From the sequence record OR757436.1: a DNA stretch of 64,000 nt; one strand, given 5' to 3'. Below, in pieces: positions 4,135-64,000 of the stretch. How positions within the stretch are numbered: position 1 is the first letter of the stretch; each line of letters starts with the position of its first letter. The notes under the pieces are model-generated. The model searched no databases. It worked only from the letters and a program-made list of their open reading frames with translations, and was not told the DNA's origin. The translations under genes and the position numbers were made by a program. The DNA is from Escherichia phage vB-EcoP-XT73.

Positions 4135-4173
4135 TAGAGTACAATAAGAATTTGTATTTTACAGGAGAGAGTT

Positions 4174-5608: not shown

Positions 5609-5787
5609 TGTTATCAGCAATCGTATGGGGTATTTGGGCTGTCTTTATTGGTGGTGGTATCTATTGGGCTTCTGGCAAGCTTATTGAAGAAACTCCTGAC
5701 AAGAAAGGTGAGATTCAAACAGCATCAACCATCATGGTTGTCGTAGCTGTTGTTATCCCATTCCTGCTTCACCTCCTGACTGCATAA
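5609..5787 (+). CDS. small two-segment membrane protein
   Basis: 59 aa (MLSAIVWGIWAVFIGGGIYWASGK...VVVAVVIPFLLHLL) with two hydrophobic segments; below the ORF-track length cutoff. Confidence 0.35.
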
Positions 5788-49281: not shown

Positions 49282-49554
49282 AGGACTTGCTTTCTTTATT
49301 AAGAAGTAGTAAATTGTATTCATCGAAGCGAAGCAGTGATGCAAAGTAGCTAGATGGTAGTAAGCTCCATGAAGGATAATCGTCCTAAGTAGTGGAGAAT
49401 GTTTAAAGATAAGGACTCTGCGATTGACTGGTGAAAGCTGGAACACTATCGAGTCAGTGAAGAGGCCAACTGAGCAATGGCCCTACGTATAAAAGAGAAA
49501 TACGTGCTATCTTGTGAAACATGAAACCAAATACACATCAATGAGGATTCACAA

Positions 49555-50046
49555 ATGGCTAAAGTAATGCAGGTAGTTAATCTGGCAAGCTATGTACTGG
49601 TTGCCGCGATCGGTGTTAGTGCACTGGTAACATCTCTTTCTGATAAGGCTATCGCTAGTCCAGCTCCTGCAACTAATGCCGCTGATGTTTTCGCTAGTTC
49701 CATTAATAAAGGTTGGATGATTTGCAACGGTGCGGATAGTGACGGCAATACCATCGCGTTAAAGATGAAATTTAGTAACGTAACAAATGAAGGCGTTCTC
49801 TTTCAATCTAAGACGTTGGATGGTCAGCCTAACAGTGATCTGGTACTCAAGCGTGCTGATAATGATGCGGATATGGTGACGTATGGCACTGTACAACGTT
49901 ACGAAGACGTTAAAGCTGTAACCAACCTAGTGAGTTATGGTCCGGTCAATGAGTCGATGATTGCTACCACTGTTTACAATAACGCTGATAACGCTGTTTA
50001 TACTATTCACGTTAATCTGTCAAATTGTATTAAAGCTAGCAAATGA
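49555..50046 (+). CDS. secreted/periplasmic protein (signal-peptide-like N-terminus)
   Basis: MAKVMQVVNLASYVLVAAIGVSALVTSLS; RBS GAGGA. Confidence 0.5.
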   Translation: MAKVMQVVNLASYVLVAAIGVSALVTSLSDKAIASPAPATNAADVFASSINKGWMICNGADSDGNTIALKMKFSNVTNEGVLFQSKTLDGQPNSDLVLKRADNDADMVTYGTVQRYEDVKAVTNLVSYGPVNESMIATTVYNNADNAVYTIHVNLSNCIKASK

Positions 50047-50150
50047 AAAAATTAATTTGCAATACTAGCTCAACCTTGCTATCTTTAGCTTTCACCGCGA
50101 TTGCTACGGCAATAGCATATTATGTTCTTGTTGTTTTGGGAGTGTAGGTT

Positions 50151-50402
50151 ATGGCTATCAAAGAAGTTAAATTGTCTAACGGTTTTTCCTGTTTCGTCGG
50201 TCGTTCTGAAATCATGTTTAATACACTTGATGGTCAGATAACTTTTCCTATCGTCACTTTTTGCAAGATGGAATATCAGCCTCTTAAGGACTGGTTAGCC
50301 TTTGCTAATTTCGAAATTAACCGCGATGACTTCCGCTCAATCTATATTGACGGTGATTTGACTCTGGCTAACCTGCTTAGTGAAGGATTAATACATGGCT
50401 AA
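50151..50402 (+). CDS. hypothetical protein
   Basis: 83-aa ORF. Confidence 0.4.
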   Translation: MAIKEVKLSNGFSCFVGRSEIMFNTLDGQITFPIVTFCKMEYQPLKDWLAFANFEINRDDFRSIYIDGDLTLANLLSEGLIHG

Positions 50403-50649
50403 AGAGCATAGCTTTACTATCCCGACTTACAATTACGGTGAGATTGATTTCTCATATACGGATAACTCTGACAAGTGTCTAATCTTGTTTGTTGTCGGTG
50501 ACAATATTAATGCGATCGACTTCCCTGCGGTCGCTCTAATCATGGATGGCGTTAAAGCAGGCCATTATCTGGCGCAACGTGGGATTCTTCTGTCGCTGGA
50601 AGAAATCGAACTACTTAGAGTAGCACTATTTAAAGGTAAAGGCAACTAA
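50395..50649 (+). CDS. hypothetical protein
   Basis: 84-aa ORF overlapping the upstream stop. Confidence 0.4.
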   Translation: MAKEHSFTIPTYNYGEIDFSYTDNSDKCLILFVVGDNINAIDFPAVALIMDGVKAGHYLAQRGILLSLEEIELLRVALFKGKGN

Positions 50650-50848
50650 TGATCCATGATTATTTTTGGCGGTGCTTGTTCGTTGTTACAGTGGCGTTAT
50701 TCGTAGCTGATATGCTTTATTCTTACATTCTATAGAGTCCGGTTGTGTTATTTCTGTTTTTGTTTGTCGTTGGCTTCATTTCTTTAAATTATTTATTGAT
50801 TGTTGCCGCTTTCGATATTCTTAAACTCATTACTAAAGGTTAACTATT

Positions 50849-51214
50849 ATGTGGTTTATTAAATTCGTCGTTAAAACGGTTGTAGGCTTTTTTCTGGTTG
50901 TTCTTCTGTTGGGTGTCCTGCTATCAGCTATGGGTAGCGTTAAGGCTGCAACATTTTCCCCTGCTACGGTTGACGGCTTGCAATGTACCTACCTTGTAGA
51001 AAACTATTCGACTGGTAAAAAGTCACCTAAGGTTATTATTTTACATGTAAATGATTTCGAGCATGTACAATCATACGCTAAGACTATTCAGCTAGTGAAT
51101 GAAACCACTGGCAAACAAATCACGGTCGATCACTTGATGCGCTCGTCGTTGACGCTCTTTGACGAGTCTATGAATGAAGTAGAATCCGGTAACGGTCAGT
51201 GTGTAAATCCTTAA
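50849..51214 (+). CDS. membrane-anchored or secreted protein
   Basis: N-terminal hydrophobic stretch VVGFFLVVLLLGVLLSAMGSVKA. Confidence 0.45.
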   Translation: MWFIKFVVKTVVGFFLVVLLLGVLLSAMGSVKAATFSPATVDGLQCTYLVENYSTGKKSPKVIILHVNDFEHVQSYAKTIQLVNETTGKQITVDHLMRSSLTLFDESMNEVESGNGQCVNP

Positions 51215-51293
51215 TCCTTGTGGGCCTGTTCTTTTTGACCATTGTCGGTGCAATGGGCCTTTTCTATGCTGTCATAATGTTAGGAGTTTAAAA

Positions 51294-51617
51294 ATGAAGA
51301 AGTTAATCGTTGGCTTGGCTGTTGGTTTGTCTTTGTTTGCTGGTAGTGCTAGCGCATACATGAAATGCGGAAGCATTGGAGTGGTCACAGCCTCTAATGG
51401 TGCTAAAAATCTCACCGCTTTAGGTAAGACTTGGTCCGCTACTGAGGTTATCACTTTAGAAAATGGCTTAAAGGCTGTAATCTATGATAACCGGAAAGAT
51501 GGTTCAATTCTTCGGGTTGTTCCTACGGAAGATGGGAAAACGGTTGCCATTATCTATTATCGAGATGCGGAATCTAATCTTAATGGTAATCCTGTGCTTT
51601 CCGGTATGTGCCGATAG
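51294..51617 (+). CDS. secreted protein with Sec-type signal peptide
   Basis: MKKLIVGLAVGLSLFAGSASA followed by a hydrophilic mature region. Confidence 0.5.
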   Translation: MKKLIVGLAVGLSLFAGSASAYMKCGSIGVVTASNGAKNLTALGKTWSATEVITLENGLKAVIYDNRKDGSILRVVPTEDGKTVAIIYYRDAESNLNGNPVLSGMCR

Positions 51618-51954
51618 TCTATCTGATGCTCTAAATCCTTCCTATAAGCCTCCTAGTGAGGCTTTTCTCATTTCTAAGGTGATTGTATTCCTTACCCTCC
51701 TTTAGCTCATTGTGATGCGTCTGAGAGCGTCAAATAGTGCTTTACAAGCCTGTTTTAGTATGTTATTCGCGTGCGCGTTCCTTTACCTACTCCTCTACGA
51801 AAAAGTTTAAAATAATTTGCTTTGCCCTATTGCATTACTCACTGGTTGGCGTATACTTCAATTCATCGGGTACGATGAAAAACATACAAGGCAAGAAATT
51901 GCCCCGCTCTTTAAAAATCAGGCTAGAAAGTGAAAAAATACTTGAAAAAAGTAT

Positions 51955-51982
51955 TTGACAACTGGAAAGCCTAACCTATAAT
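51955..51982 (+). promoter_or_regulatory. sigma70-type promoter (consensus -35 and -10)
   Basis: TTGACA, 16-nt spacer, TATAAT, preceded by A-tracts. Confidence 0.6.
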
Positions 51983-52101
51983 GAGCATAAGTCAGCGATG
52001 ACGTGAAACATCCCCGCTCTTTAAAAACTTATCATCTTGCCCTTTCGCATAGATTCAAGCGAGATAAGGGAAAAGAATAAAAGAAGATGATAAAAAAGAG
52101 G

Positions 52102-52130
52102 TTGCAAACGTGGTTAAGGTAGTTCATACT
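52102..52130 (+). promoter_or_regulatory. sigma70-type promoter candidate
   Basis: TTGCAA, 17-nt spacer, CATACT, A-rich upstream. Confidence 0.45.
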
Positions 52131-52407
52131 AACCACAAGTTAACAAAACAACGTTAACTAGTTCCCAAGTCAACGTATCGCGGGAAAGGTGGCACATAGT
52201 GCAGCGAGTAGTTCGGGAGTAGGCGCCCCGTTAATGAATAAGTAAGCCTTTAATGATGCAGTGATTAGCAGACACTATAAAAGGCTAAAAACGCTCTTTA
52301 ACAATATGGATCATAAGTTTAAGCCTTATCGCTTAATCTTCAATCAAATAAAGCTGGTTGATATATCCTCCCAATAGCGGGAACGACGAAAAAGATTAAA
52401 AAAGCGG

Positions 52408-52436
52408 TTGACAGCAAAAACATCATGGTCCATACT
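52408..52436 (+). promoter_or_regulatory. sigma70-type promoter candidate
   Basis: TTGACA, 17-nt spacer, CATACT, preceded by aaaaaagcgg. Confidence 0.5.
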
Positions 52437-53357
52437 GAGCACTCACTAAGCAAAACACCGCTTCAGTGAAAAGCGAAACAACGGCTAACAGTTGCATGAC
52501 GTGAGAAAGCACGTCGATAGATTTACCGCTCTTTAATAATTTAAACATTCCCCTATATCGGTTAAATATGTTTGATGATAATAACCATCGGAAAACATAC
52601 CAGATAAAACGGTGTAAAACTCCCTAAAATATCAGGGTAAACAGTTTTACATTCCCTTACTGGAAACGCCACCACTGATAAGCGGATTCATTGAGTACAC
52701 GCAACGGCTTAAGCTAATCGCCCACGGTTAAGGGTAGCGGCGGCCATCGCTAACACGGTGCTACAGTGAAAGAAACTAATCAGGGTAGGCAATCCCGACG
52801 AATTAACGCTCAATTGAGAGCGGCGGGGAGTGGTTAAAAAGTGGCAAATTGCTATTTAACAATAAGGTTTAATGCGAACGTTTACGATGTGAACGGCTTG
52901 AGATTCATCACAAGATGAAAGTACATAGCCGGTTTATGTAGTAAACCTGCCGAAAGATATAAAACGCCGGAATACTAGGCGGTTAGTGACTTTTTCGCAA
53001 TAGTATCCCGTAGTGGGCGATGACTAGCGAAAGAGAGCTGATATAAAAGGATAAGCGGGAGCGAAAGCAAAGTAAACGATATTGCCGACGGTTACAGTAA
53101 TGTAATTAAATAGAGTCGGACGCATAGCCTTATTGTGATGATTGATCATCGCTATCAGGTCGGCTTCGTTTATAGCGACTAATTAAAGATACCAGATGAA
53201 ACATCACGGATAAGGGGGCGGCAAGGTTAACTCCTGACAAGACCGCCCCGCTTATCAATAATTACTTAACAATGAGTGATTATCGATAAGTCAATGGCGA
53301 CTTAAAAAGCTCATAGAGAGCGGGGCATAGTGCCCTTACAATTGAAAGGTGAATATC

Positions 53358-54257
53358 ATGGCTAAAATTTTTAATCTGGTAAAAGAATCTGGTTTTAACG
53401 CACTGGCTAACAACATTCGTAGCAACAACGCGGCGATTAAACAAGATGTTTCTAATTTTCTGTTAGGGCACTTGCAGCACTTCCGCAGTAACGGCAAGAA
53501 GTTAGATGTATTGCAGTCGGCGGTTGATTTTCTGTTAACCGAACGTTTCCGCGATATGGATGTGATCGCCACTGCAATTACTTTCTTAACCCCAATCAAG
53601 TTTAACACCGATGCGGCAAATGGTCGTAAGAAGTGGATTAATCTGGAAGGTGAAGCGAAAGCGAAAGAAGATGCGAAAGAAGCGCAAATTAAGGCCAAAA
53701 TGGAACAAAACCGTGCTCGCTGGTCAAATGCTTTCGAAAATTTTGCTTTAGGCCGTGAAATTGAAGTCGATAACCCTAACTTCTACAAGGGTTGCAATGA
53801 CAACGTGGCGGCACACCTGCAAATCCCGGCGAAAAACAAGGAAGATTTTAATCAGGATATTTACGCTTTAGTTGAACGCTTGAATGCAATCCGTATCGAA
53901 GCCAAATTGTTGGCTGATGAGCGCAATGGCGCTACCAGTGATAATACTATTGCCTTGAGTGAAGAAGTGGGGAAAGTTAAAAAGTCCTTTGATTCACTCA
54001 TCAAGAAAGTCACGGCCTCAACGGTAGCGATCTCGGATGATTATCTGATGAACGCATCAAGCAAGGAATTAGGATCACTCGATTCATACGCTGATGAAAT
54101 GGAAAAGACTGTTGCAGCTATGCAGGAGAAGTTAGAAAGTCTGCGCGGTCGTATCTCTTCAACGGTTGCTACCCGTACCGAACAAGCTGCGAAAGAAGAA
54201 GAGGAAGAAGTATTGCGCAAGGCAGCTGAGATTATGGCGGCACGTCAGGCAGCATAA
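53358..54257 (+). CDS. hypothetical early protein
   Basis: First long ORF downstream of the promoter cluster; GAAAGGTG RBS before ATG 53358; charged helical sequence. Confidence 0.5.
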   Translation: MAKIFNLVKESGFNALANNIRSNNAAIKQDVSNFLLGHLQHFRSNGKKLDVLQSAVDFLLTERFRDMDVIATAITFLTPIKFNTDAANGRKKWINLEGEAKAKEDAKEAQIKAKMEQNRARWSNAFENFALGREIEVDNPNFYKGCNDNVAAHLQIPAKNKEDFNQDIYALVERLNAIRIEAKLLADERNGATSDNTIALSEEVGKVKKSFDSLIKKVTASTVAISDDYLMNASSKELGSLDSYADEMEKTVAAMQEKLESLRGRISSTVATRTEQAAKEEEEEVLRKAAEIMAARQAA

Positions 54258-54288
54258 GTAAGACAATTCTAATAAACATGAGGCGCTA

Positions 54289-54318
54289 TCTTAACGGGTA
54301 GCGCCTTTTCTTTTATCA
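54289..54318 (+). terminator. rho-independent terminator
   Basis: ggcgctatc-ttaacgg-gtagcgcc hairpin followed by ttttcttttat. Confidence 0.6.
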
Positions 54319-54359
54319 GTGCATTGATTCAGTGCATTAATCAAAGAATATAATCAAAG

Positions 54360-54587
54360 GTGACGATCATGTTAATTACGCATACCACGATTTATCGGAA
54401 TCTTGTCAACGGTCAACATTACCGACTATCTAAAAAGTATGGCGTTGAATGTAAATGTGCTATTACCGGTGAATGGTATCCGTCGCCAATGAAGATTGAA
54501 ACGTTGGAACGCGAAGCGATCAGCTATATTATCACGCAAGAAACAACGTTAGGCCGTATCTTAAGAAAGCTGGGATTAAGAAAATGA
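54360..54587 (+). CDS. hypothetical protein
   Basis: 75-aa ORF. Confidence 0.4.
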   Translation: MTIMLITHTTIYRNLVNGQHYRLSKKYGVECKCAITGEWYPSPMKIETLEREAISYIITQETTLGRILRKLGLRK

Positions 54588-54808
54588 TATTCAGTAGCAA
54601 TTTTGGCAAGTGTCCTATTTGTGAGAAACATCGCAGCACGGGAAACCATCGCAAATGTAGTAAGATATTACAGCGCCAACGTGATAACAAACATTGGGAT
54701 ACTGTACACACCAACCAACGTAAGGAAGAAGTTAGAAAAATGGCTGTTAAAGCGTCATTTGCTCAATCCACCCGTATTGAACACATTCAAAGGTATCAAG
54801 CATTATGA
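54584..54808 (+). CDS. small basic Cys/His-containing protein
   Basis: FGKCPICEKHRSTGNHRKCSK; an overlapping alternative frame (54603..54815) also exists. Confidence 0.35.
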   Translation: MIFSSNFGKCPICEKHRSTGNHRKCSKILQRQRDNKHWDTVHTNQRKEEVRKMAVKASFAQSTRIEHIQRYQAL

Positions 54809-55014
54809 TCACTAACATCTCAGAATTTAAGAAGGCTCCTTCCCGACTGTTAGGCCGTCGTGTTGTATATCTTTATAGCAACAAAGGTAAATGTACAACC
54901 GGACGAATTACAACGGTGAGTAGTGCTAACAAGAAGCTGTTAAAGTTATGCGTGGCTATGGATGATGGTACAATCCTGCTACGCAGTTGGAAATCGTTTA
55001 GTTTACTTGATTAA
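54805..55014 (+). CDS. hypothetical protein
   Basis: 69-aa ORF. Confidence 0.4.
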   Translation: MITNISEFKKAPSRLLGRRVVYLYSNKGKCTTGRITTVSSANKKLLKLCVAMDDGTILLRSWKSFSLLD

Positions 55015-55083
55015 GTTGTTTGTTCAAGCCTATCCCCTTGATGGGCTTGCCCGATATAACTTATCACTGAAAGGAATAAGATT

Positions 55084-55527
55084 GTGGCTAAATCTAAAAT
55101 CAGCATGAAGGGCGGTCGTTGTTTTGCTATCTCTGAATTAGAGAAAGAGAAACCAAAGGCAACCAATCACGTCAGTAAGCGTAGTTTAAAACGTCGTGCT
55201 GCAAAGGCTGAAGCTGAATCCCATATCCCTTCTAGTGTGGCAAAACGTGTAGGCCATCGTGTCCATCGTGCTGATGCGTTATTGTTAGCCGATCATAAAC
55301 GTTCTTTGTTAAAGAGCGGGGGAGCTAAAACAGAAGAGGAGAAGAAGTTAGAAATCTTCTGTAATGGTCGCACCCGTGGTAAACAGAAGTTTAAGGGTAG
55401 CACGAAAGACCCTCAGGCTTTTCCTAAGACAAGCCAGTGTGCGCCTGATGTTTTCTACGCAGATAGTAAACACAAATGGGGAGTTGAAAAATACATTGAC
55501 CCCATAAAAGAGGCGAGGGTAAAATGA
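55084..55527 (+). CDS. strongly basic protein (nucleic-acid-binding candidate)
   Basis: 147 aa rich in Lys/Arg/His. Confidence 0.4.
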   Translation: MAKSKISMKGGRCFAISELEKEKPKATNHVSKRSLKRRAAKAEAESHIPSSVAKRVGHRVHRADALLLADHKRSLLKSGGAKTEEEKKLEIFCNGRTRGKQKFKGSTKDPQAFPKTSQCAPDVFYADSKHKWGVEKYIDPIKEARVK

Positions 55528-55706
55528 TTTATTCAGAGATTCTAAATAAAGTCAGAGAGATGCGGAAAGGTGATGCAGTAGTTGATGTTTTGGTTCATCT
55601 GGTAGCATCCTTGCAAGAAGAAAACGATTTGCTAAAGAAGGAGATAGAATCTAGAAGTAGAGAAAGGGATAGGGAGTCATTACGGAATAGCACCCCTCTC
55701 TTTTAG
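55524..55706 (+). CDS. hypothetical protein
   Basis: 60-aa helical ORF. Confidence 0.35.
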   Translation: MIYSEILNKVREMRKGDAVVDVLVHLVASLQEENDLLKKEIESRSRERDRESLRNSTPLF

Positions 55707-55759
55707 TACTATGACGCTCTTTCTGTCACGTCGTGCCCTCTCCCCATTTGAAGCTTCCG

Positions 55760-55880
55760 CATAGCCGCCTTTGAGCGGCTTTTTGCGTTGCTATAAGTGC
55801 ATTTGCGAGTGTATTTATAGCAACGGTCATGTGTTGCTTTCAGGTTTGCCCCGGCTACGGCTGGGGCTTTTTTATGCCCG
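55760..55880 (+). terminator. two tandem hairpin terminators
   Basis: agccgcctttgagcggct + ttttt, then gccccggctacggctggggc + tttttt. Confidence 0.5.
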
Positions 55881-55922
55881 TAAAACAGGAGGTAGCAAGT
55901 TCTGATAACAACGGCCCAGCTA

Positions 55923-56312
55923 ATGTTGACATTGACTATTTATTATGAGGCAGGGAACCAGCCAACCGCATGTAAGGCTTTAGTTGCGGATACCGTAATA
56001 AATAGAATGGCTCAACGAAAACTGACCGCTGAACAGGTGATAAGACAAAAGAACCAGTTTGAGTGGATTCCGGTACTATTAAAACAGGAGAAACCTTATA
56101 AACGTTATGTAAAGCTGATTCGTGACAAGAATCCGATGACTAAGCAAGCCATTGGAGAAAGCGAGCGACTTGCTAAACGTGCCCTTAAGAAGAATTATGT
56201 TCCGCTGTATAGTGGGACTTACTTTCAGAGTAAGAGCGAAGGGGTGCCAAAATGGTATGCCAATCCTATATATTGTGGTGATTTAGTGTTCGATAATAGC
56301 TCTAGGGAATAA
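55923..56312 (+). CDS. cell-wall hydrolase, SleB/CwlJ-like domain (candidate)
   Basis: IYYEAGNQPTACKALVADTVINRMAQ...NQFEW resembles the Hydrolase_2 motif; the start may lie upstream at a non-ATG codon. Confidence 0.4.
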   Translation: MLTLTIYYEAGNQPTACKALVADTVINRMAQRKLTAEQVIRQKNQFEWIPVLLKQEKPYKRYVKLIRDKNPMTKQAIGESERLAKRALKKNYVPLYSGTYFQSKSEGVPKWYANPIYCGDLVFDNSSRE

Positions 56313-56511
56313 TCACTAGTGCCAGATTTGACAAACTAAATTCCTTTATAAACCAACCACTTAGTAAATTTATTGAAAAAGATGGTAGTATTCTGGGACT
56401 ATGAGTAATGCTCTGTATATAGACCCTTTGAAAATTTCTTAGAAAATAAGTTTACTAAATATAACTTACTTAAATAATATTACTTTTAATCTCTGATAAA
56501 GGGTAAATAAT

Positions 56512-56808
56512 ATGACTTTAGAAGTATATAAATTCCTTTTTGTAAGCTGTTTAACTATCAGCGTTATAGGATTTATTGTTCTCAGAAACAAAGCAGCAAG
56601 CTGGGAGAGAATGTATAGATCTCTAGTCCGAGTGGATGAGATGTATAATGAGAAAGTTAAAGTAACACTCAACGATCTTATTATGCAAGTTGAAGACAGA
56701 AACAAGCGTCTTCAGAATCTCAATCATGAAGTGTTGCGCCTTGCTCGTGCTAATGAAGACTTGCGAGTGGCTATTGCTAAGCAGCAGGAGATTAACAGTG
56801 AAAGTTAA
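56512..56808 (+). CDS. membrane-anchored coiled-coil protein
   Basis: N-terminal hydrophobic segment FLFVSCLTISVIGFIVL followed by a heptad-like region. Confidence 0.45.
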   Translation: MTLEVYKFLFVSCLTISVIGFIVLRNKAASWERMYRSLVRVDEMYNEKVKVTLNDLIMQVEDRNKRLQNLNHEVLRLARANEDLRVAIAKQQEINSES

Positions 56809-57031
56809 TATCAAGCCCGATCATACCACACTTCGTTTAAATAACATGAGGCCGGGTGCCCTGTTTCATTTTAAAGGCTCCCTCTATATCAGAACCGGAT
56901 TAACAACTGACTATCACGTCAATTGTGTTAACGTGGTTTCTGGAGAGCTTATTGTTATCAGCAAAAACGAAGTCTGCCAAGTGCGCAACGATCTCCACAT
57001 AACCAACATAGAGGCTAAAGATGAAGATTGA
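56800..57031 (+). CDS. small protein, paralogue family C
   Basis: GTG start overlapping the upstream stop; ...LRLNNMRPGALFHF...YHVNCVNVVSGELI fits the family pattern. The longer track ORF (56690..57031) overlaps the upstream gene and is taken as an over-extension. Confidence 0.45.
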
Positions 57032-57275
57032 TCTTAACCTTAAAGCTAAAGAATTGCGTGTGGGTGATTTGAAACTTGGCGATGTGTTCCAAGTTAAGGC
57101 AACATGTATTGATTATTACATGATCGTTCAGTTATATACACCACATGTGTCAGAGACTGATCTTCGGAATGGTTGTGTAGTTCTTAATTTAAGAACCAAT
57201 CAAGTAATGAAGCTAGATTCAAACTTACCTGTTTCAGTTATCCATGATGCAGTAATTACCAACAAAGAAGAGTAA
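57021..57275 (+). CDS. small protein, paralogue family C
   Basis: KELRVGDLKLGDVFQV...YYMIV...GCVVLNLRTNQV. Confidence 0.5.
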   Translation: MKIDLNLKAKELRVGDLKLGDVFQVKATCIDYYMIVQLYTPHVSETDLRNGCVVLNLRTNQVMKLDSNLPVSVIHDAVITNKEE

Positions 57276-57575
57276 CATCGACTTATAGCCCTTGTGTTTA
57301 TCAGAGGGCTATGTGAGGGTGTTCCTCATTAACTTATTAATTCAGGCATATGCCACACCGCTAGGGAGAGCTTGCTCGAACATCCGGTGTTAGACTAAAA
57401 CCTGTTAATTTTCGAAAGACTTTCTGATATGTAGGGGTACATATCGGTTTGGGATTCAGGAGACTTCCTAGGGGTAGGGAGTCTTCACCAGTTTGTAGAG
57501 TAGGTGGCTCTATTGTAAGAGTCATCCGCTATATCAACTGGCAATAATGCCTCCACTAACAAAGAGAGATAGGTA

Positions 57576-57719
57576 TGAAAGTATCAACCAAACGTATGAA
57601 CCGCCCTGAACGTATGGATGCAGTAGCTAACGGTGCTCTGAAACTGGAAGGCTTCTGGATTCATGCAATGTCAGCCATCCGTAACAAGCAAGGTAATTGG
57701 ACTTATGCCGGTTAAAACA
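57576..57719 (+). CDS. small basic protein (47 aa)
   Basis: AGAGAGATAGG precedes the ATG; below the ORF-track cutoff. Confidence 0.3.
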
Positions 57720-57914
57720 GCTCATGTGATAGGTATGCGAGAGATCATTCGCATTGCCTTGATGGAACACACTGATCGAAACATGCAACTAACGCAAATC
57801 TCTAAGTGTCTTAATTGCTCAAGAGATATGGCTAAGGAATTAATGTTCGCATTCCTTTATAATGCAGAAGATGGGTTTTTACAAAACCGTCTGCTTGGTT
57901 TAAAACAGAAATAA
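57705..57914 (+). CDS. hypothetical protein
   Basis: Start taken at the internal Met (MPVKTAH...) of the track ORF 57663..57914; a hairpin with T tract follows. Confidence 0.35.
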   Translation: MPVKTAHVIGMREIIRIALMEHTDRNMQLTQISKCLNCSRDMAKELMFAFLYNAEDGFLQNRLLGLKQK

Positions 57915-57999
57915 ATAAATAAAAGGCTGCCCAATCGGGTGGCCTTTGTTGTTTTAATTAAGGGACAGCTCTTACTTAAACTAACAAGAGGAAGCTCAA

Positions 58000-58176
58000 A
58001 TGTCTAAGCAAACAATCAAGAATACACAAGCTGGTTACTCTTATGTTAACTCTCCTTGCTGTGGTGCTCGTGTTAATCTGGTTAAAGAAGAGGTTCGTAT
58101 CGTTCAGCGTGGAGCTACTGTTGTTCGTTCATGCTGTGTCTGTGGTAATGACATCTTTATTAAAGGTAAAGTATGA
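58000..58176 (+). CDS. small Cys-rich protein
   Basis: About 58 aa with SPCCGARV ... CC-x-C; below the ORF-track cutoff. My hand reading of this stretch was off by one base against the ORF track, so the 3' end is approximate. Confidence 0.3.
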   Translation: MSKQTIKNTQAGYSYVNSPCCGARVNLVKEEVRIVQRGATVVRSCCVCGNDIFIKGKV

Positions 58177-58397
58177 TTATCGTCCACTCTGAACCTAAAG
58201 ATAATACTTTTGGTAGTCTACGTAATGGTGATGTATTCTCTCTAGAAATAGACGGGGATACAAAACCTCCTTTATACATGAAGGTTATGCACAGACATGC
58301 TATCTGTATAAAGAATCCTGAAACAAGATTCACCTTTGATAGAACTTGCCCTGTCAAATACTATCAAGCTACCCTAAATGTTAGGAGAGTAGGATGA
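58173..58397 (+). CDS. small protein, paralogue family C
   Basis: DNTFGSLRNGDVFSL...LYMKVMH...HAICIKNPETRF. Confidence 0.5.
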   Translation: MIIVHSEPKDNTFGSLRNGDVFSLEIDGDTKPPLYMKVMHRHAICIKNPETRFTFDRTCPVKYYQATLNVRRVG

Positions 58398-58645
58398 AAA
58401 ACTTCCAAGCTGCACCAATAACTAAAGCGATCGCAGTTAGTGATGTGATGATGACTGTTCCTCTGAACACTCGTTACATTGCAATTGACAAGATGGGTTA
58501 TGTATGGGCTTGGAAGATTAAGCCTAGCTATAACGCATTGTTTGACGAGTTTGTTTGTACTGGTACTTACAGTCCTACATTCTTGGGTTTATTTGGAGAG
58601 TTTGAAGGTCAGTATAAAATCATTACTCTCCCTGCTTGTGTTTGA
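58394..58645 (+). CDS. small protein, paralogue pair D
   Basis: RYIAIDKMGYVWAWKIKP; shares the Y-I/L-A-x-D-x-x-G-x-V-W/Y core with the next ORF. Confidence 0.45.
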   Translation: MKNFQAAPITKAIAVSDVMMTVPLNTRYIAIDKMGYVWAWKIKPSYNALFDEFVCTGTYSPTFLGLFGEFEGQYKIITLPACV

Positions 58646-58654
58646 GGTTCTGGT

Positions 58655-58886
58655 GAAGACTAAAGAGGTTAAATATTTTGGTGAAGTTATTAAAATAGGT
58701 AACTCTATAAGATATTTAGCAACTGATAGCAACGGCGAAGTGTATGGGTTTACTCATAAGCCAGAAATTCGTGGGTATGCTTGGGCACTCCCTTATGGAA
58801 CTCCATTCGAGACTGGAGGGGCTGTTTATCTTAATGATAATGGACCTCTGTTTGGGTGGAAAACATCTCTCGTTGAGGTGGTATAA
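58655..58886 (+). CDS. small protein, paralogue pair D
   Basis: RYLATDSNGEVYGFTHKPEIRGYAWALP; non-ATG start assumed just after the upstream stop. Confidence 0.35.
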
Positions 58887-58888
58887 TT

Positions 58889-59053
58889 ATGTTCAAGTGG
58901 TTTAAATATCTCTTCCATCTCCATGAGTGGGAGACAATCAAAGCGGTTAGTTTAAATACATACAATGAGTTTGGTAAACTGGAAAGTACCGGAACTCGTT
59001 ACATACTTCGATGTAAAACATGTGGTCATATCACTAAGCGGGATATGATCTAA
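58889..59053 (+). CDS. small H-E-W / C-x-x-C protein
   Basis: MFKWFKYLFHLHEWETIK...RCKTCGH; 54 aa. Confidence 0.35.
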   Translation: MFKWFKYLFHLHEWETIKAVSLNTYNEFGKLESTGTRYILRCKTCGHITKRDMI

Positions 59054-59061
59054 GAGGTGTT

Positions 59062-59271
59062 ATGTTCTTTCGTAAGAAAAAGCCCGAAGATTCTGGATGT
59101 AAACATGAGTGGGTGATCACTGAAAACTTACATATCACTCACGCTAAAGACACTCCAGTTGAAGCGAAAGAGTCTCGTGTATCTCGTGTCTGTAAACGCT
59201 GTTTGAAAATAGAACAGCATAAAGTCCCCGGTCATATAGGTCATGATGTGGCCTTGCGTATCTTCAGTTAA
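59062..59271 (+). CDS. small H-E-W / C-x-x-C protein
   Basis: ...CKHEWVITEN...VCKRCLK; paralogue of the 58889 ORF. Confidence 0.4.
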   Translation: MFFRKKKPEDSGCKHEWVITENLHITHAKDTPVEAKESRVSRVCKRCLKIEQHKVPGHIGHDVALRIFS

Positions 59272-59289
59272 ACAAATTCAGAGGTTAAT

Positions 59290-59598
59290 GTGAAACAAAA
59301 GCATTTTATCATCTCAACCTTACTACTAATGACAACCATTGGTATCATCTCTGTTAATAGTGCAGAGATTGGGGTTAAGTATCAGAGTGTTCAGCAATGC
59401 ACTCTTAAAGAGCATAGCTTAACTGGTATCAAAGAATCTCATGGTATGGTAAGAGATGGGCTTCTGTTTGTAGAAACAACTTCTGGTAATCGTGTCATGG
59501 CTACTGATGGCAAAGAAACAAAGTATGCCTACTTCCCTGATACAACAGGCTACTACACTTTTGAAGAGAAGGATTGTAAGAAGTCTTTCTCTTTATAA
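59290..59598 (+). CDS. secreted protein with signal peptide
   Basis: MKQKHFIISTLLLMTTIGIISVNSAE. Confidence 0.5.
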   Translation: MKQKHFIISTLLLMTTIGIISVNSAEIGVKYQSVQQCTLKEHSLTGIKESHGMVRDGLLFVETTSGNRVMATDGKETKYAYFPDTTGYYTFEEKDCKKSFSL

Positions 59599-59607
59599 AA
59601 GAATCAA

Positions 59608-59682
59608 GTCCCTATAGTTAAAAGGATATAACAGATTTCTTCTAAAAATCCATTCTAGGTTCGAGTCCTAGTGGGGACGCCA
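59608..59682 (+). tRNA. tRNA-Arg (anticodon TCT)
   Basis: Hand-folded cloverleaf: acceptor gtcccta/tggggac (one G-U), D stem gtta/taac with GG in the loop, anticodon stem gattt/aaatc with loop cTTCTaa, T stem ctagg/cctag with loop ttcgagt, discriminator G and encoded CCA. Confidence 0.75.
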
Positions 59683-59702
59683 AATCAAATAGGAGGTGTG
59701 TT

Positions 59703-60002
59703 ATGAGTTGGGGTGGTGTAATATCCTTAATCGGTATCTTCATCGTCTGTGTGGCCCTTACAGGCTGTGTACAGAGCCGTCCTGATGGATGGTGTGCAGT
59801 AGCAGTGGATGGTATTTGTGTATCTCGCTGGCATAAAGGTGAGAAGGTTCCTTCTGGTGAGATTGATATGCGCTGGAACGGAGCAACCTGCTCTAATGCT
59901 AACCCTTCTATCAACGAAGAGAAATCTACACCGGATAATGTTGTGATTGATACAGCGTTGTGGTGTGGTGGCTCTGTAACAACAACCGGTAAGGAGTGGT
60001 GA
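59703..60002 (+). CDS. lipoprotein
   Basis: Signal peptide ISLIGIFIVCVALTGC with lipobox L-T-G-C; six further Cys in the mature part. Confidence 0.55.
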   Translation: MSWGGVISLIGIFIVCVALTGCVQSRPDGWCAVAVDGICVSRWHKGEKVPSGEIDMRWNGATCSNANPSINEEKSTPDNVVIDTALWCGGSVTTTGKEW

Positions 60003-60003
60003 T

Positions 60004-60201
60004 ATGAATTATACATCTACAAAGGTGTTAATTGATTCGATTAATAGCTCCTCAGAAGCTGTACAGGAGCGTTTAATACAAGATGTTAGCAATGACATTA
60101 AGTTCTTTGTTAAACGCCGCCTGTTAGGTTCTAAGGCTTATTACAGAGCTAAAGCAGAGTTAACTAAGAGAGTGTTTCTCTTACATGGCTTGGTATATTA
60201 A
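60004..60201 (+). CDS. hypothetical protein
   Basis: 65-aa ORF. Confidence 0.4.
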   Translation: MNYTSTKVLIDSINSSSEAVQERLIQDVSNDIKFFVKRRLLGSKAYYRAKAELTKRVFLLHGLVY

Positions 60202-60210
60202 GGAACTTAT

Positions 60211-60432
60211 ATGAAATTAGATTCTAAACAATCCCTTAAAACTGTTGAACTATCCACACTGCCAAACGGAAGTATTTTTGGTCATGATAAACACTTCTGG
60301 ATTAAAACAGACTACTTGAACGATGGGTATATCACCTGTGTCAATCTTTGGAATGGCTCAGTGGATGGCTATCGCCCTAGTGCAAAAGTAGTCCCTCAGC
60401 CTGATGCAAAGGCTATAGGTTTAGTTTATTAA
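60211..60432 (+). CDS. small protein, paralogue family C
   Basis: KTVELSTLPNGSIFGH...FWIKTDY...GYITCVNLWNGSV. Confidence 0.5.
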   Translation: MKLDSKQSLKTVELSTLPNGSIFGHDKHFWIKTDYLNDGYITCVNLWNGSVDGYRPSAKVVPQPDAKAIGLVY

Positions 60433-60441
60433 GGAGTTTAT

Positions 60442-60615
60442 ATGAGCTGTTTTGGTGGTGGTGAAATAGATGACGATTATGACATGGAATCCAACGGTAC
60501 ATGTCCTGATTGTGGATGTGAGACGTGGGATGGTGTGTCAGTATACCCTGCCTGTAGTTACTCACCAGTGATCTGTAAAACATGTGGTGATCAGCCATGT
60601 GACCAATCTTGTTAA
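60442..60615 (+). CDS. small Cys-rich protein
   Basis: 57 aa with CPDCGCE ... CKTCGDQPC; below the ORF-track cutoff. Confidence 0.3.
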   Translation: MSCFGGGEIDDDYDMESNGTCPDCGCETWDGVSVYPACSYSPVICKTCGDQPCDQSC

Positions 60616-60624
60616 GAGGTTAAT

Positions 60625-60882
60625 ATGGACGGAGAAGTGGTTTCATATATAGCCATGACTTACTTGGTAGGTTGGTGGGTTGCAGTGTTGGTGGTGACGT
60701 GGTGCTTCAAGAGAGGGAAGTTTAAAACTTTCCTACATACTCCTTGGGGGAACCCTGACGAAATTGCAATTTGGGTTGTGATCTTCTTCTGGCCTGTTAT
60801 CTTATTATTCTTTATCATCTTCCCAATCCTACTACTATTTGACACTGTATTATGTAGGCTTACTAATTTTATAGTAAAGTAA
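60625..60882 (+). CDS. small integral membrane protein
   Basis: Two or three hydrophobic segments (LVGWWVAVLVVTW ... IAIWVVIFFWPVILLFFIIFPILLLF). Confidence 0.5.
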   Translation: MDGEVVSYIAMTYLVGWWVAVLVVTWCFKRGKFKTFLHTPWGNPDEIAIWVVIFFWPVILLFFIIFPILLLFDTVLCRLTNFIVK

Positions 60883-61530
60883 TATCGTGAAGGATTCTTA
60901 CGAGAGTCCTTTGAGATAGGACTTCAGATCTCCTATCAAACTAACATTCATGTAACTAGCCCATAAGGGCGTTACCCTTTAATAACCCAGCCCACTAAGG
61001 GGGCGGGAGTTTAGTGCTGGATTAGCATAACGCTTATTCCCACAAAGGCAACCGATTGTTAGATCTTACATGCAATATTAATTAATAGGATAAGGGAGGA
61101 TTCGTCCCCTCCCCCTATTTATAAATTATCAGGAGGGTGCATTAGCTGATTAGCTGTAGAAGGGAGGCTGATATCTACAGCGTGGCCCAGAGTTAGTGTA
61201 CTCTCCTGATGAGTAGATACCTCATCACGGTAAGCTGTGGAATAATCTTTACAGAAGTTACTTAAAGTAGCCTGTACGGCCCTCAGCAAAGAGTCCGGAC
61301 GATATCTGAGTGACTTTAAAAACAGATGGAGCCAGGTGGAATCCCTGGCAATCAATTACAGGTATAGCTTATGAGGCTAATTAATGCAGAGCCTATGGTA
61401 AAGCAGTCGCCCGTGGTCAAATGACCGTATGCCCATTGGGTGCATCCCTTTGGTGATGGCTAGGGAGTCCGAGCGTAGGTCCGAACCCTACACCTGTAAC
61501 CAAATCAAACAATATCTAATTGGAGGATGT

Positions 61531-61842
61531 ATGAAAGCTCGAAGAACTATATGGACTCCGATTCAGATTGAAAATCTTCGGAGACTAATCAAAGAGTACT
61601 CTGTTCAAGAGGTTGCTCAGATTATGAATGTAACGGAGAATGCAGTTAATACAGCTTGCACTAAGTTTGGTATATCAAGAGCTGCAATCCGAGTCAAGTG
61701 GTCTAAAGAAGAAGACCAGTTCCTTATCCGTAATGCTGGGTTCATGTCTATTCAGAGAATGGCTGACATGCTCGGTAGAAGCTATGCTGCTGTACAGAAC
61801 AGGGCATGTATGCACCTTAACATTAGCCTTAAACTTAAATAG
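61531..61842 (+). CDS. DNA-binding protein candidate with two helix-turn-helix-like repeats
   Basis: Start at the internal ATG after GGAGG; two similar segments (SVQEVAQIMNVTENAVNTACTKFGIS and SIQRMADMLGRSYAAVQNRACMHLNIS). Confidence 0.4.
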   Translation: MKARRTIWTPIQIENLRRLIKEYSVQEVAQIMNVTENAVNTACTKFGISRAAIRVKWSKEEDQFLIRNAGFMSIQRMADMLGRSYAAVQNRACMHLNISLKLK

Positions 61843-61850
61843 GAATCAAT

Positions 61851-62105
61851 ATGAAAGTTAACGAGTTAAATAGAACTACCAAGACTGTGAAACTCCATAC
61901 TCTGAAGAAGGGTGATACATTCCGTTTAGAGGAGAATGGACCAATCCACATGGTCTGCACTGCGGCATCTACTAATTGGGTGGAAGTTGCACGAGATCGA
62001 GTAGTGTGTGTCAGGCTGGAAGATGGTAATCTGAGTGGTCCGGTCGAGAGGATTCCTGTTATCCCTGTTAAAGTTGAAGCTAACGTTATTAAGGGTTCTA
62101 AATGA
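61851..62105 (+). CDS. small protein, paralogue family C
   Basis: KTVKLHTLKKGDTFRL...IHMVCTA...RVVCVRLEDGNLSG. Confidence 0.5.
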   Translation: MKVNELNRTTKTVKLHTLKKGDTFRLEENGPIHMVCTAASTNWVEVARDRVVCVRLEDGNLSGPVERIPVIPVKVEANVIKGSK

Positions 62106-62347
62106 AGATCATCCCAAAGATTAAAGATAACACTGTTTCATTGGCTACAATTATTCCCGGAAACCCTTTCGTAGTTCAAAGAGGAACAGCATCCCCTCAG
62201 TATTACATCCGTGTCAATAATGTGTCCAACAAAATCTCTGTCGAAGAAGGTTGGATTACTATAGTCAATCTTCTTACTGGTGTATTAGGTGTTATGAAAA
62301 GTGATGCCCCAGTTGAAGTAATTCGTATGTCAGTGGTTCAGGAGTAG
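62102..62347 (+). CDS. small protein, paralogue family C
   Basis: NTVSLATIIPGNPFVV...QYYIRV...GWITIVNLLTGVLG. Confidence 0.5.
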   Translation: MKIIPKIKDNTVSLATIIPGNPFVVQRGTASPQYYIRVNNVSNKISVEEGWITIVNLLTGVLGVMKSDAPVEVIRMSVVQE

Positions 62348-62352
62348 TGTAG

Positions 62353-62595
62353 ATGAGCACAATACATATCAAGGTCCATCACAAAGAAGAAAAGAAACTC
62401 TTTGTTAAAGATCTATCAATCGCTGATATCTTCACTTTAAAAGAAGATGATAATCAGGTCATCTATTTGATGATGCCTGTGACTGGAGGGTATCGAAGGG
62501 CTGTTTGTTTGGGTACAGGTGTACCTCGTCCTGTTGCTGATACTCTTGAAGTTGGTGAGAAGTTTAGTAAGGCTGAAATCATCTTAACTCCATAG
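62353..62595 (+). CDS. small protein, paralogue family C
   Basis: KKLFVKDLSIADIFTL...VIYLMMP...RRAVCLGTGVPR. Confidence 0.5.
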   Translation: MSTIHIKVHHKEEKKLFVKDLSIADIFTLKEDDNQVIYLMMPVTGGYRRAVCLGTGVPRPVADTLEVGEKFSKAEIILTP

Positions 62596-62603
62596 GAAAA
62601 CAA

Positions 62604-62720
62604 ATGAGACGTAAAGCATATTCTTATGACGATATGATTAACCAGAAAGGCTTCGGTCAACGACAGCCTGACGGTTCAATTATCTGGTTCGTAAACGGGC
62701 AGAAAAAGGTAGCTAAATAA
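62604..62720 (+). CDS. small basic protein (38 aa)
   Basis: MRRKAYSYDDMINQKGFGQRQPDGSIIWFVNGQKKVAK; below the ORF-track cutoff. Confidence 0.25.
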   Translation: MRRKAYSYDDMINQKGFGQRQPDGSIIWFVNGQKKVAK

Positions 62721-62825
62721 GCCTTCTTCTCTCCTCCTTTTAGTACTATGACGCCTCTCTGTGGGCGGACCAATTTGCGTAGGGAATTCCCTCTACGCAG
62801 CCATAATTTTTAAGGAATTTCCCCT

Positions 62826-63059
62826 ATGTCTAAAGTAAGCGCAATTGATGCAATCCGTCAACCGTTCCAGTTCCAATCCAAATCAACCCAAACCTTCAGC
62901 GAGCCTAAGCAAATTCGCTTGGGTGGCACAGAGAAGACTGTATTTGATCTGGCTAAAAACAAGAGCGTTACTGTAGTTGATGGTGGCACTCTGGTTAACG
63001 TTTCCCATCGTATCCGCACTGGCAAAACTGCCAAAGATCGTGCTAAGAAAGGTGAATAA
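62826..63059 (+). CDS. hypothetical protein
   Basis: 77-aa ORF with upstream AAGGAA. Confidence 0.45.
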   Translation: MSKVSAIDAIRQPFQFQSKSTQTFSEPKQIRLGGTEKTVFDLAKNKSVTVVDGGTLVNVSHRIRTGKTAKDRAKKGE

Positions 63060-63301
63060 TGAAAATAGGGCAACCAGCTAAGGATGTTCTAGCGAAGATT
63101 AGTGATATCTCTATTGGGGAGGTTTTCTCAGCAGAGCACTTTTCAAGTTACTACATGAAAATCCCTGACACTAAAGTAGAGGGTTGCATCACCCCCGCCA
63201 ACGCAGTTAACCTGAACACAGGGCATTTGTCTGCATTCAAACCTGATTCACAGGTTACTGAAATCAAAGATGCCTACCTTGCCTTTGGTGGGGATAAATA
63301 G
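63059..63301 (+). CDS. small protein, paralogue family C
   Basis: KISDISIGEVFSA...SYYMKI...GCITPANAVNLNTGHL. Confidence 0.5.
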   Translation: MKIGQPAKDVLAKISDISIGEVFSAEHFSSYYMKIPDTKVEGCITPANAVNLNTGHLSAFKPDSQVTEIKDAYLAFGGDK

Positions 63302-63302
63302 T

Positions 63303-63518
63303 ATGATAGAACTTGTGTCTGTCGTTTACAGATTACACTATCGTCTAGATAAAGGAAAATCCTATAAATGCAAGAGTAAGACAGGGAATCTGTGCTCTGT
63401 AGAGAATAACTCTGGTCAATGGGTGAATGTTCCTTGTTGCTGGTTCAGGAAAGATTTGACTAGCAAAGAGATTGACGAAATTCTTAGTGATGATTTTGTA
63501 AAATCAGGTGATTTTTAG
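63303..63518 (+). CDS. hypothetical protein
   Basis: Start at the internal ATG of the track ORF 63270..63518. Confidence 0.35.
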   Translation: MIELVSVVYRLHYRLDKGKSYKCKSKTGNLCSVENNSGQWVNVPCCWFRKDLTSKEIDEILSDDFVKSGDF

Positions 63519-63755
63519 TTGTAGTAACGCCTATAGCCTTCCCTCCGGAGGGCTATGTGAGTTATTCTGACTCAACCAACCTAATCTTAATATATTTCCC
63601 GTATGGGGCCGATGCTAGGGCGAGGAATAATCCTCAAACATCCGTCGGATAGATATTTTAAGAGCAGGTTATCCACAGATATTGGGTAATATCTTTTTGG
63701 ATTTAAAGCTTGGCTCTTTTCGGAGAGTCCTTTTTTAAATTCAACGAGAGGAAAT

Positions 63756-63908
63756 ATGTCTAAATTAGATTTAAAACTGCTAGCAGCAGCGGTAGTGATT
63801 TGTGCACTAGCACTGGTAACGCAGAGAACATCTGGATTTATTCAGTGTTTCTTTTCTGGGCAATCCACTTATCAGTGGGTTATTGACGAGTGTAAACAAC
63901 AGGAGTAA
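63756..63908 (+). CDS. small membrane/secreted protein (50 aa)
   Basis: MSKLDLKLLAAAVVICALALVT...; GAGAGGAAAT RBS. Confidence 0.3.
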   Translation: MSKLDLKLLAAAVVICALALVTQRTSGFIQCFFSGQSTYQWVIDECKQQE

Positions 63909-63910
63909 GT

Positions 63911-64000
63911 ATGAATACACGTCCCATTAAGGGCAACGTTAATATTGAAACTCTGAACAAGGTTGCATCAAATCTCGGTGGAATGTCCAACGAGGATCTT
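63911..64000 (+). CDS. hypothetical protein, 3' end outside the window
   Basis: ATG after AGGAG; ORF runs to the window edge. Confidence 0.3.
   Translation, partial: MNTRPIKGNVNIETLNKVASNLGGMSNEDL

Follow-up and report, generated by a model that had tools for sequence, protein, structure and literature searches.

The closest described counterparts of the elements reported here, the put sites of phage HK022 and the nut sites of phages lambda and P22, are structured RNAs present in two copies per genome, which lie upstream of terminators in early operons read by host RNA polymerase and are independent of the genes that follow them. The same applies to two sites in a 64,000-nucleotide (nt) stretch of DNA from Escherichia phage vB-EcoP-XT73 (record OR757436.1; the whole stretch is hereafter termed the window), each of which holds a copy of a previously unannotated, deeply conserved structured RNA domain that is in no described family tested. 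The domain differs from nut (boxA plus a 15-nt boxB) and from put (two stem-loops, ~70 nt) in extending over 215-280 nt with a junction, and in that both copies lie in one operon, at ~6 and ~12 kilobases from the promoters. The two stem-loops of put bind the zinc-binding domain of the RNA polymerase beta' subunit and need no protein factors for their action. When lambda-type nut sites were sought, defined as a boxA (CGCUCUUA-like) followed within ~10-20 nt by a hairpin of 5 base pairs (bp) with a GAAAA or GAAGA pentaloop, no boxA match was found inside either element and the loops of the first hairpin (H1) were not of the GAAAA type. The site-1 H1 stem, GCCCU/AGGGC, is identical to that of lambda boxB.

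The promoter-early stem-loops (PeSL) of T4-type phages, reportedly mobile regulatory cassettes (a description said to come from Arbiol et al. in 2010), are likewise conserved intergenic stem-loops beside hypervariable small early open reading frames (ORFs), with varied genes joined at the same edge. Unlike them, the present domain has no sigma70 promoter, occurs in two copies rather than dozens, and adopts a complex covarying fold with an invariant loop, a structure that points to an RNA function beyond recombination. Like the RNase III sites of T7 and the CUUCGG hairpins of T4, it is intercistronic in a polycistronic early RNA, and H1 is capped as C(UUCG)G in some phages; by way of difference, H1 is embedded in a larger conserved fold, and neither kind of site has anything comparable to the core of that fold. 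RNase III sites comprise about two turns (~20 bp) of double-stranded RNA, mostly continuous and often with an internal loop, whereas H1 has 8-11 bp and the second hairpin (H2) 5-7 bp, and H1 together with the outer helix P0 at site 1 makes up ~16 interrupted pairs. Terminator-ended small RNAs with an Hfq-type 3' module are resembled at site 2, which ends in UCUUUUUGGAUUUAAAG, a hairpin and U6, but neither a promoter of its own nor a complementary target in the phage was found, and site 1 is without the U tail.

A sequence-only reading of the window had proposed that hairpins with the same stem occur at two gene ends, and this proved correct: the pattern TATAGCCYT-N(4-20)-AGGGCTATGTGAG matched exactly twice in the window, at 57284-57317 and 63532-63561, both on the + strand, while none of 100 shuffles contained any match, and every further copy of the 13-mer AGGGCTATGTGAG in the window carried at least three mismatches. 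H1 begins 9 nt past the stop codon of the ORF at 57021-57275 (site 1) and 14 nt past that of the ORF at 63270-63518 (site 2). It was present in both the minimum-energy and the centroid folds at each site, alone and in context, in short and long windows alike; short-window folds gave -14.1 kcal/mol (z -2.3) at site 1 and -16.8 kcal/mol (z -3.6) at site 2, and the whole intergenic folds, compared with shuffled sequence, gave z values of -4.1 and -4.8 respectively. The C-to-T change opposite G that distinguishes the two stems does keep the pairing, as had been noted, and is one case of a wider variation in H1 pairs; in phage WFI101126 a C-to-U change in the site-1 stem is similarly retained as a U-G pair. 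That H1 is no intrinsic terminator, having no U-tract, was also borne out, since it is followed by GUGAGGG or GUGAGUU and a terminator scan at H1 (57284-57330 and 63532-63575) returned no match.

Other parts of that reading needed revision. The loops of the two hairpins are indeed unrelated in this genome, but not elsewhere, the site-2 H1 of SU7-like phages carrying a 12-nt loop that resembles the one at site 1; in other phages UUCG, CUCG or CUUC tetraloops are found there. What had been taken for a ccctccgg palindrome within the site-2 loop contributes two extra C-G pairs, so that the stem has 11 bp and a CUCC tetraloop (63532-63557). The GTGAG that had been treated as a mere flank is, at site 2, the 5' strand of the hairpin UGAGUUA/UGACUCA (63558-63574) and, at site 1, lies between H1 and the partner strand of P0. 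The view of a stand-alone gene-end hairpin was likewise not sustained, as the likeness between the sites runs for more than 200 nt beyond H1: H1 is not autonomous but opens a conserved RNA domain of ~215-280 nt made up of several helices.

Sites 1 and 2 are two paralogous copies of one structured RNA domain on the sense strand. A second motif, GCTAGGG-N(8-25)-AACATCCG, was found exactly twice in the window, 55-65 nt 3' of each H1 (none in 100 shuffles), and a covariance model of the core likewise returned exactly two hits in the 64-kilobase (kb) window, scoring 83.6 bits at site 2 and 63.1 bits at site 1, with no third copy up to E=10. The architecture, drawn from an alignment of both intergenic regions plus homologues, starts at AGUAAC, at or just past the upstream stop codon, and proceeds 5' to 3' through H1, H2, the long-range helices P2a and P2b, the junction and further hairpins (Table 1). 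The junction, which P2a and P2b close, contains a 3-bp hairpin (H3) with an RUAU loop, and the core; this consists of P4 (6-7 bp), an internal loop of 7+7 nt (5'-CUAGGGM / RAACAUC-3') and P5 (3-5 bp, with a variable loop). The core is followed by a conserved (A/U)UAGA and then by one to three more hairpins. At site 1, H1 is clamped by P0 (AACAYC/GRUGUU), which was present in the minimum-energy fold of every site-1 sequence and in which one pair is C-G in 8, U-G in 4 and U-A in 2.

Table 1. Features of the two copies of the RNA domain, by position in the window.
Site	Feature	Positions	Strand	Sequence or remark
1	Domain copy	57271-57551	+	From the stop codon of ORF 57021-57275 to just 5' of the ribosome-binding site of ORF 57575-57715
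1	5' conservation edge	57271-57276	+	AGTAAC; TAA at 57273-57275 is the upstream ORF stop
1	P0, outer helix around H1	57274-57323	+	AACAUC 57274-57279 / GGUGUU 57318-57323
1	H1, hairpin of the sequence-only reading	57284-57313	+	UAUAGCCCU / AGGGCUAUG, 12-nt loop
1	H2, small alternative hairpin	57314-57328	+	UGAGG / CCUCA; holds GTGAG; excludes P0
1	H3, 3 bp	57345-57354	+	GGC-AUAU-GCC
1	Core	57355-57394	+	P4 ACACCG/CGGUGU; loop CUAGGGA 57361-57367 / GAACAUC 57378-57384; P5 GAG-CUUG-CUC; UAGA
1	H5	57426-57445	+	GAUAUGUA-GGGG-UACAUAUC; alignment pairs 159-182 with compensatory changes
1	H6, 12 bp, site 1 only	57459-57486	+	CUAGGGGUAG; GGGG loop; several pairs changed on both sides
1	H7, long hairpin	57488-57541	+	Core stem GGUGGCUCU/AGAGUCAUC at 57503-57527
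2	Domain copy, ancestral type, also in phage 7-11	63523-63738	+	
2	H1, second hairpin of the sequence-only reading	63532-63557	+	UAUAGCCUUCC-CUCC-GGAGGGCUAUG
2	H2	63558-63574	+	UGAGUUA-UUC-UGACUCA; GTGAG is the 5' strand
2	P2a and P2b	63577-63671	+	P2a 63577-63582 / 63666-63671; P2b UCUUAA 63585-63590 / UUAAGA 63658-63663
2	H3 and core	63598-63653	+	H3 CCC-GUAU-GGG; P4 CCGAUG/CGUCGG; P5 GAGGA-AUAA-UCCUC; then AUAGA
2	Core loop	63615-63621 / 63636-63642	+	CUAGGGC / AAACAUC
2	DnaA-box consensus, perfect	63669-63677	+	TTATCCACA; partly within P2a 3' strand
2	H5, not in 7-11	63678-63693	+	GAUAUU-GGGU-AAUAUC
2	H6, intrinsic terminator	63712-63736 (hairpin 63712-63729)	+	GGCUCUU-UUCG-GAGAGUC, C, U6

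That selection acts on the structure of the RNA, as the sequence-only reading had supposed, is apparent from compensatory changes across relatives. Among 31 distinct core sequences, standard pairs occupied 94.4% of the cells, as against 35-50% when the partners were slid by 1-3 columns; 8 of the 14 pairs had changed on both sides, and the covariation score was reached in none of 500 shuffles. Pairing reached 98.9% in P4, where four of the six pairs were compensated, and 98.6% in P5, double changes being present in both. For the full site-2-type structure (17 distinct sequences, 54 pairs) the corresponding values were 98.2% and 39-50%, with ten double-change pairs. In the same 17 sequences H1 was paired in 97.5% of cells: its six basal pairs (AUAGCC/GGCUAU) were invariant, while the upper ones changed yet stayed paired, the next three being U-G (12), C-G (3) or U-A (2); U-A (14) or A-U (3); and C-G (8) or U-G (2). 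Equivalent variation was recorded in H2, where one pair is U-A in 8 and C-G in 4, another U-G in 11 and C-G in 1, and the 7-11 version is GAGUUA/UAACUC; in P2b, which is UCUUU/AAAGA in 7-11 and UUCUUUU/AAAAGAA in locus L224; and in the apical pair of the site-2 H6 (U-G 10, C-G 4, G-C 3), above which the loop is UUCG or GAAA.

Certain wobble pairs are fixed, the U-G pair of P4 in 17 of 17 and others in H1, P0 and the H6 terminator, and the fold is restricted to the transcribed sense strand, because on the other strand these conserved wobbles would be A-C mismatches. The loops in turn swap among UUCG, GAAA and CUUG, all stable RNA tetraloops. Taken with the compensatory changes and the strand-specific G-U pairs, this indicates selection on RNA. 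Within the otherwise invariant internal loop, position M and the opposite R (57367/57378 and 63621/63636) were A/G, C/A or A/A but never C/G in the 31 sequences. Such a pattern is that expected of a sheared-type pair, and suggests a conserved non-Watson-Crick pair of this kind beside tandem G-A pairs.

Conservation of the domain does not depend on the genes that flank it. Both copies were present, in the same order, in every Kuravirus-like locus examined, and database searches returned 98 records with site 1 (≥83% identity) and 102 with the site-2 region. Against six diverse relatives the element was 85-97% identical (site 1 85-97%, site 2 86-96%), compared with 19-58% (unrelated) for the upstream 300 nt and 56-90% for the downstream 300 nt; at least eight unrelated upstream genes adjoin the same AGUAAC edge, the site-1 TAA serving as their stop codon. 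A scan with the exact-core pattern also matched Salmonella phage 7-11, a member of another phage family; its sigma factor and that of phiEco32 share only 15% identity (7-11 paper). The 7-11 copy, of the site-2 type, was 77% identical over 210 nt, with flanks at the chance level of 42-49%; it has other neighbour genes but the same terminator at its end, and lies ~18 kb downstream of the early promoters. There is one copy each in 7-11, SE131 and pSal-SNUABM-01, and variants were recorded in the latter two and in two metagenomic contigs.

Contig L236, a 48.7-kb metagenomic sequence related to Citrobacter phage CVT22, holds one copy which shares H3, the loop and P5 but has a wholly different P4 (AAUAGCG/CGCUAUU) and different upstream hairpins H1 and H2; H3 itself is GCC-AUAU-GGC in SU7-like phages, GCC-GUAU-GGC in 7-11 and CCC-AUAU-GGG in L236. 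Covariance-model searches of the right 28 kb of 7-11 gave no further copy, and those of GAP52 and CVT22 none at all. In three lineages the element sits between hypervariable small ORFs and a conserved enzyme cluster, and the genes downstream of it are not homologous between lineages. A search of Rfam 15 at the gathering threshold detected only the tRNA-Arg in the window, and the best sub-threshold matches (E ≤ 10) of the window, 7-11-like and L236 copies were to unrelated families at 13-19 bits (E 0.3-10). A host or plasmid homologue was also sought, and only a marginal 42-nt match around the DnaA-box sequence, in the nrdD-treC spacer, was obtained. No + strand ORF of ≥40 amino acids occurs in 57276-57574 or 63519-63755, and a protein-coding interpretation was rejected, the length differences between homologues not being multiples of three and the helix substitutions being compensatory.

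The window is 80-99% identical to ~100 phiEco32-like coliphages (Kuravirus and sister genera), and its source is a phiEco32-like phage (Kuravirus). Early genes occupy the + strand, and both sites lie within a long, sigma70-driven early operon read by host RNA polymerase, ~5.5 kb and ~11.5 kb into it, amid small + strand ORFs and with a tRNA-Arg gene between them. The early promoters are in a 2.1-kb non-coding spacer (~51215-53348); published promoters, whose positions were taken from the SU10 supplement and the 7-11 paper, stand at the start of the early operon only. Intrinsic-terminator-like sites numbered 23 on the + strand of 49000-64000, as against 10.7 +/- 3.3 in shuffles, strong in-line examples being those at 54280-54307, 55848-55867 and 57922-57947. 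The site-2 3' hairpin also has the form of an intrinsic terminator, predicted from GGCTCTTTTCGGAGAGTC followed by CTTTTTTAAA at 63712-63739; it ends 20 nt 5' of the start codon at 63756, and a terminator is annotated here in the SU7, 4E8 and 7-11 records. At site 1 the H7 stem GGCUCU/AGAGUC is the same as that of the site-2 terminator, but without a U tract.

The interpretation that we favour, if tentatively, is that the domain is a factor-binding non-coding RNA. A host or phage protein would recognise the invariant internal loop, while the outermost helices, H1/P0 on the 5' side and the terminal hairpin on the 3' side, would keep ribosomes translating the upstream ORF from disturbing the fold and shield both ends from nucleases; H1 would then be a boundary helix, itself neither terminator nor nuclease target. 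A part of the polymerases would stop at the site-2 terminator, giving a discrete early RNA of ~215 nt, and the remainder would pass it to reach the downstream early genes, probably with help from boxA-type antitermination signals. Kuravirus and 7-11 share the terminal stem GGCUCU/AGAGUC, and site 1 retains it despite having no U tract, which suggests that this hairpin belongs to the functional RNA; the site-2 3' end resembles a small-RNA 3' module, the flanking genes are not conserved, and neither a conserved promoter nor an alternative antiterminator pairing was found in the element by scans and inspection. A promoter within the element was considered and rejected: there was none at site 1, and site 2 gave one 9/12 match (63567-63596), which SU7-like phages and 7-11 do not share and whose bases are explained by P2a and P2b. 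Several points nevertheless weigh against a factor-binding RNA. Any such RNA is predicted from the sequence, and no binding partner of the domain was identified; the absence of a terminator at site 1 means that release by termination cannot be essential to the shared function; the element is missing from two relatives built on the same genome plan, GAP52 and CVT22, and is therefore dispensable for that lifestyle; the invariant, perfect DnaA box of site 2 hints at a possible DNA-level component that the model does not explain; and the operon context is about as well accounted for by a cis role on the transcribing polymerase. Such a role, in which the folded RNA, either unaided like HK022 put or bound by a phage or host factor or a small ligand in the manner of lambda nut or of an attenuator or riboswitch, would act as a gate on its own polymerase and set readthrough of its 3' terminator and of later ones, thereby separating blocks of early genes, is possible rather than probable. 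In its favour, the site-2 type lies directly 5' of the conserved terminator, 20 nt before the next gene and with no promoter between; in-line terminator-like sites are in excess, yet published promoters are confined to the operon start; the position between hypervariable small ORFs and the enzyme cluster recurs in all three lineages; and the junction, with its invariant loop, is reminiscent of a pocket for a ligand or protein. According to the authors of the 7-11 study, moreover, an antitermination strategy must exist, the mechanism of which 'remains to be defined'. However, site 1 is without a terminator of its own, ordinary terminators elsewhere in the operon are without an element, the 7-11 element lies too far (~18 kb) past the early promoters to serve readthrough of that stretch, and a gate does not require the sequence of the terminator stem to be conserved. 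With respect to a riboswitch or attenuator, the junction is aptamer-like and site 2 has a terminator, but the candidate antiterminator pairing AAGAGC/GCUCUU, judged by inspection, is not kept in 7-11-like sequences, where it amounts to ≤4 bp.

The sequence-only reading had preferred a processing or stability element. In a module of this kind host RNases would cut the early RNA in or beside the element, after which H1/H2 would guard the upstream message at its 3' end and the hairpins further on would guard the following message at its 5' end. The intergenic location in a long polycistronic transcript, the stable hairpins without U tracts right after stop codons, the C(UUCG)G loops of H1 in several phages and the treatment of such hairpins as stabilisers in the 7-11 paper are all consistent with this, and it is plausible for H1 and H2 alone. 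For the domain as a whole it is unlikely: a classical RNase III site would need a longer helix than H1, the invariant 7+7-nt loop, the RUAU hairpin and the 77% identity to 7-11 over 210 nt are left unexplained, and an invariant loop set in a three-way-junction architecture exceeds the needs of a nuclease or stability hairpin. The AU-rich linker of the site-2 type was considered as a single-stranded RNase E site and discarded, being paired in P2a/P2b with covariation. An element operating as DNA, whether a recombination joint for early cassettes or a DnaA-bound site (origin, priming or roadblock) with single-stranded DNA hairpins, would account for the many unrelated genes joined at the same AGTAAC edge, for the recurrence at the site-1 3' end of an H1-like helix (AUAGCUCU/AGGGCUAU) in phiEco32, and for the DnaA box invariant in site-2-type copies. 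In that connection GGTTATCCACA was unchanged in 17 of 17 site-2-type sequences including 7-11, though only its first half is helical, and just one other perfect DnaA box occurs in the window (27355-27363, minus strand). We nonetheless consider a DNA-level role very improbable: the conserved G-U/G-T positions and the UUCG, GAAA and CUUG loops point to RNA, a recombination joint needs sequence identity and not compensatory pair changes, there is a single DnaA box rather than a cluster and none at site 1 or in L236, the phage has its own polymerase and primase/helicase, and, unlike PeSL, the element has no promoter. Chance likeness, or two ordinary terminator-like hairpins, has nothing to commend it beyond the general abundance of short hairpins between phage genes, and is refuted by the 0 of 100 shuffles with even one match, by homology over more than 200 nt in ~100 genomes and in 7-11, and by the pairing and covariation results.

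In seeking RNA partners of the domain, no enrichment of base-pairing targets for the invariant loop was detected in the phage. A candidate complementarity to transfer-messenger RNA (tmRNA), in which GCUAGGGAGAG (57360-57370) perfectly complements 11 nt of E. coli K-12 ssrA (141-151 of sequence L241; CUCUCCCUAGC), is probably due to chance, since in many copies the duplex would be interrupted at the A/C-variable loop position, which moreover covaries with another base of the RNA itself. The occurrence of stop codons (TAA, TAG, TGA) in all frames, considered as a design of the flanks, holds at site 1, but those of site 2 are all in one frame, and it was put down to coincidence.

A boxA-like array was observed on the + strand in the early-promoter spacer. 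The boxA of rrn operons and of lambdoid nut sites reads UGCUCUUUAACAA and CGCUCUUA, and the array resembles both. Within 950 nt, CGCTCTTTAA occurs at 51905, 52015, 52292 and 52527, and a fifth copy, TGCTATTTAA, at 52850 (array 51905-52859), each being 3' of a promoter-like site; the only exact copies elsewhere in the window are two on the other strand. Each of the seven related loci examined has four to six copies in the corresponding position; the regions of 7-11 and GAP52 that were searched have none. A hairpin, AAUACUU-GAAAA-AAGUAUU (51937-51955), boxB-like and with the same pentaloop as lambda boxB, follows the first copy by 19 nt; since it overlaps the -35 of a consensus promoter at 51955-51982, only an upstream promoter could transcribe it. 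Together with the many in-line terminators, the array suggests Nus-factor-dependent antitermination of early transcription, in the manner of rrn or lambda. No paper linking phiEco32 with boxA was found in the literature searched.

A more far-reaching proposal, and one that we regard as rather doubtful, is that the domain may represent an undescribed class of phage regulatory RNA whose loop binds polymerase, a Nus-type factor or a small molecule. On the same doubtful footing, it might, in conjunction with the boxA array, provide a protein-sparing form of antitermination or gating that times the early blocks of sigma-factor-encoding podophages. Were this so, the regulatory RNA and the array would constitute the very mechanism that the 7-11 study leaves to be defined.

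Phages phiEco32 and 7-11 serve as reference systems in studies of how phages take over host transcription, and in the records and papers examined nothing is annotated at these sites save, in some records, a terminator. The fold is nevertheless more conserved than the surrounding proteins and is kept from Kuravirus to a different phage family, which makes it a strong candidate for a regulator that is missing from the known early programme, be it an antitermination gate, a host-factor decoy or a new ligand sensor. The small size of the domain, its sharply defined invariant loop and the ease with which these phages are grown render the question directly testable. As such phages serve as therapy candidates and engineering chassis, deleting or moving seemingly empty DNA at the two positions could have unexpected effects.

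Some further observations concern individual genomes. In phiEco32 (locus L002, 1205-1335) the site-1 3' hairpin carries a branched insertion of ~75 nt closed by AUAGCUCU/AGGGCUAU, a stem almost identical to H1, so that phiEco32-type genomes have three such helices. Phage EcoN5 (L216) has a third, identical site-2-type copy (positions 12622 and 14140) in a tandem duplication of ~1.5 kb comprising two genes, the element and three or two genes, which may be an assembly artefact. A site-2-type copy is also present at the start (436-659) of record PP350014.1 (phage PH444), which at 114,913 bp is much longer than any Kuravirus genome.

Gene 112 (57575-57715), always 3' of site 1, encodes a basic protein of 46 amino acids (MKVSTKRMNRPERMD...) which has no annotated family and is among the few early proteins with a homologue in 7-11 (shared KRMNRP..M...NGALK). 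It was considered as the binding partner of the domain and rejected, there being no family annotation and its position in 7-11 being 12 kb from the element. Finally, L236 carries at 1978-5668 at least six small early ORFs of 62-91 amino acids, all ending in (D/E)EENE, apparently a repeated gene family.

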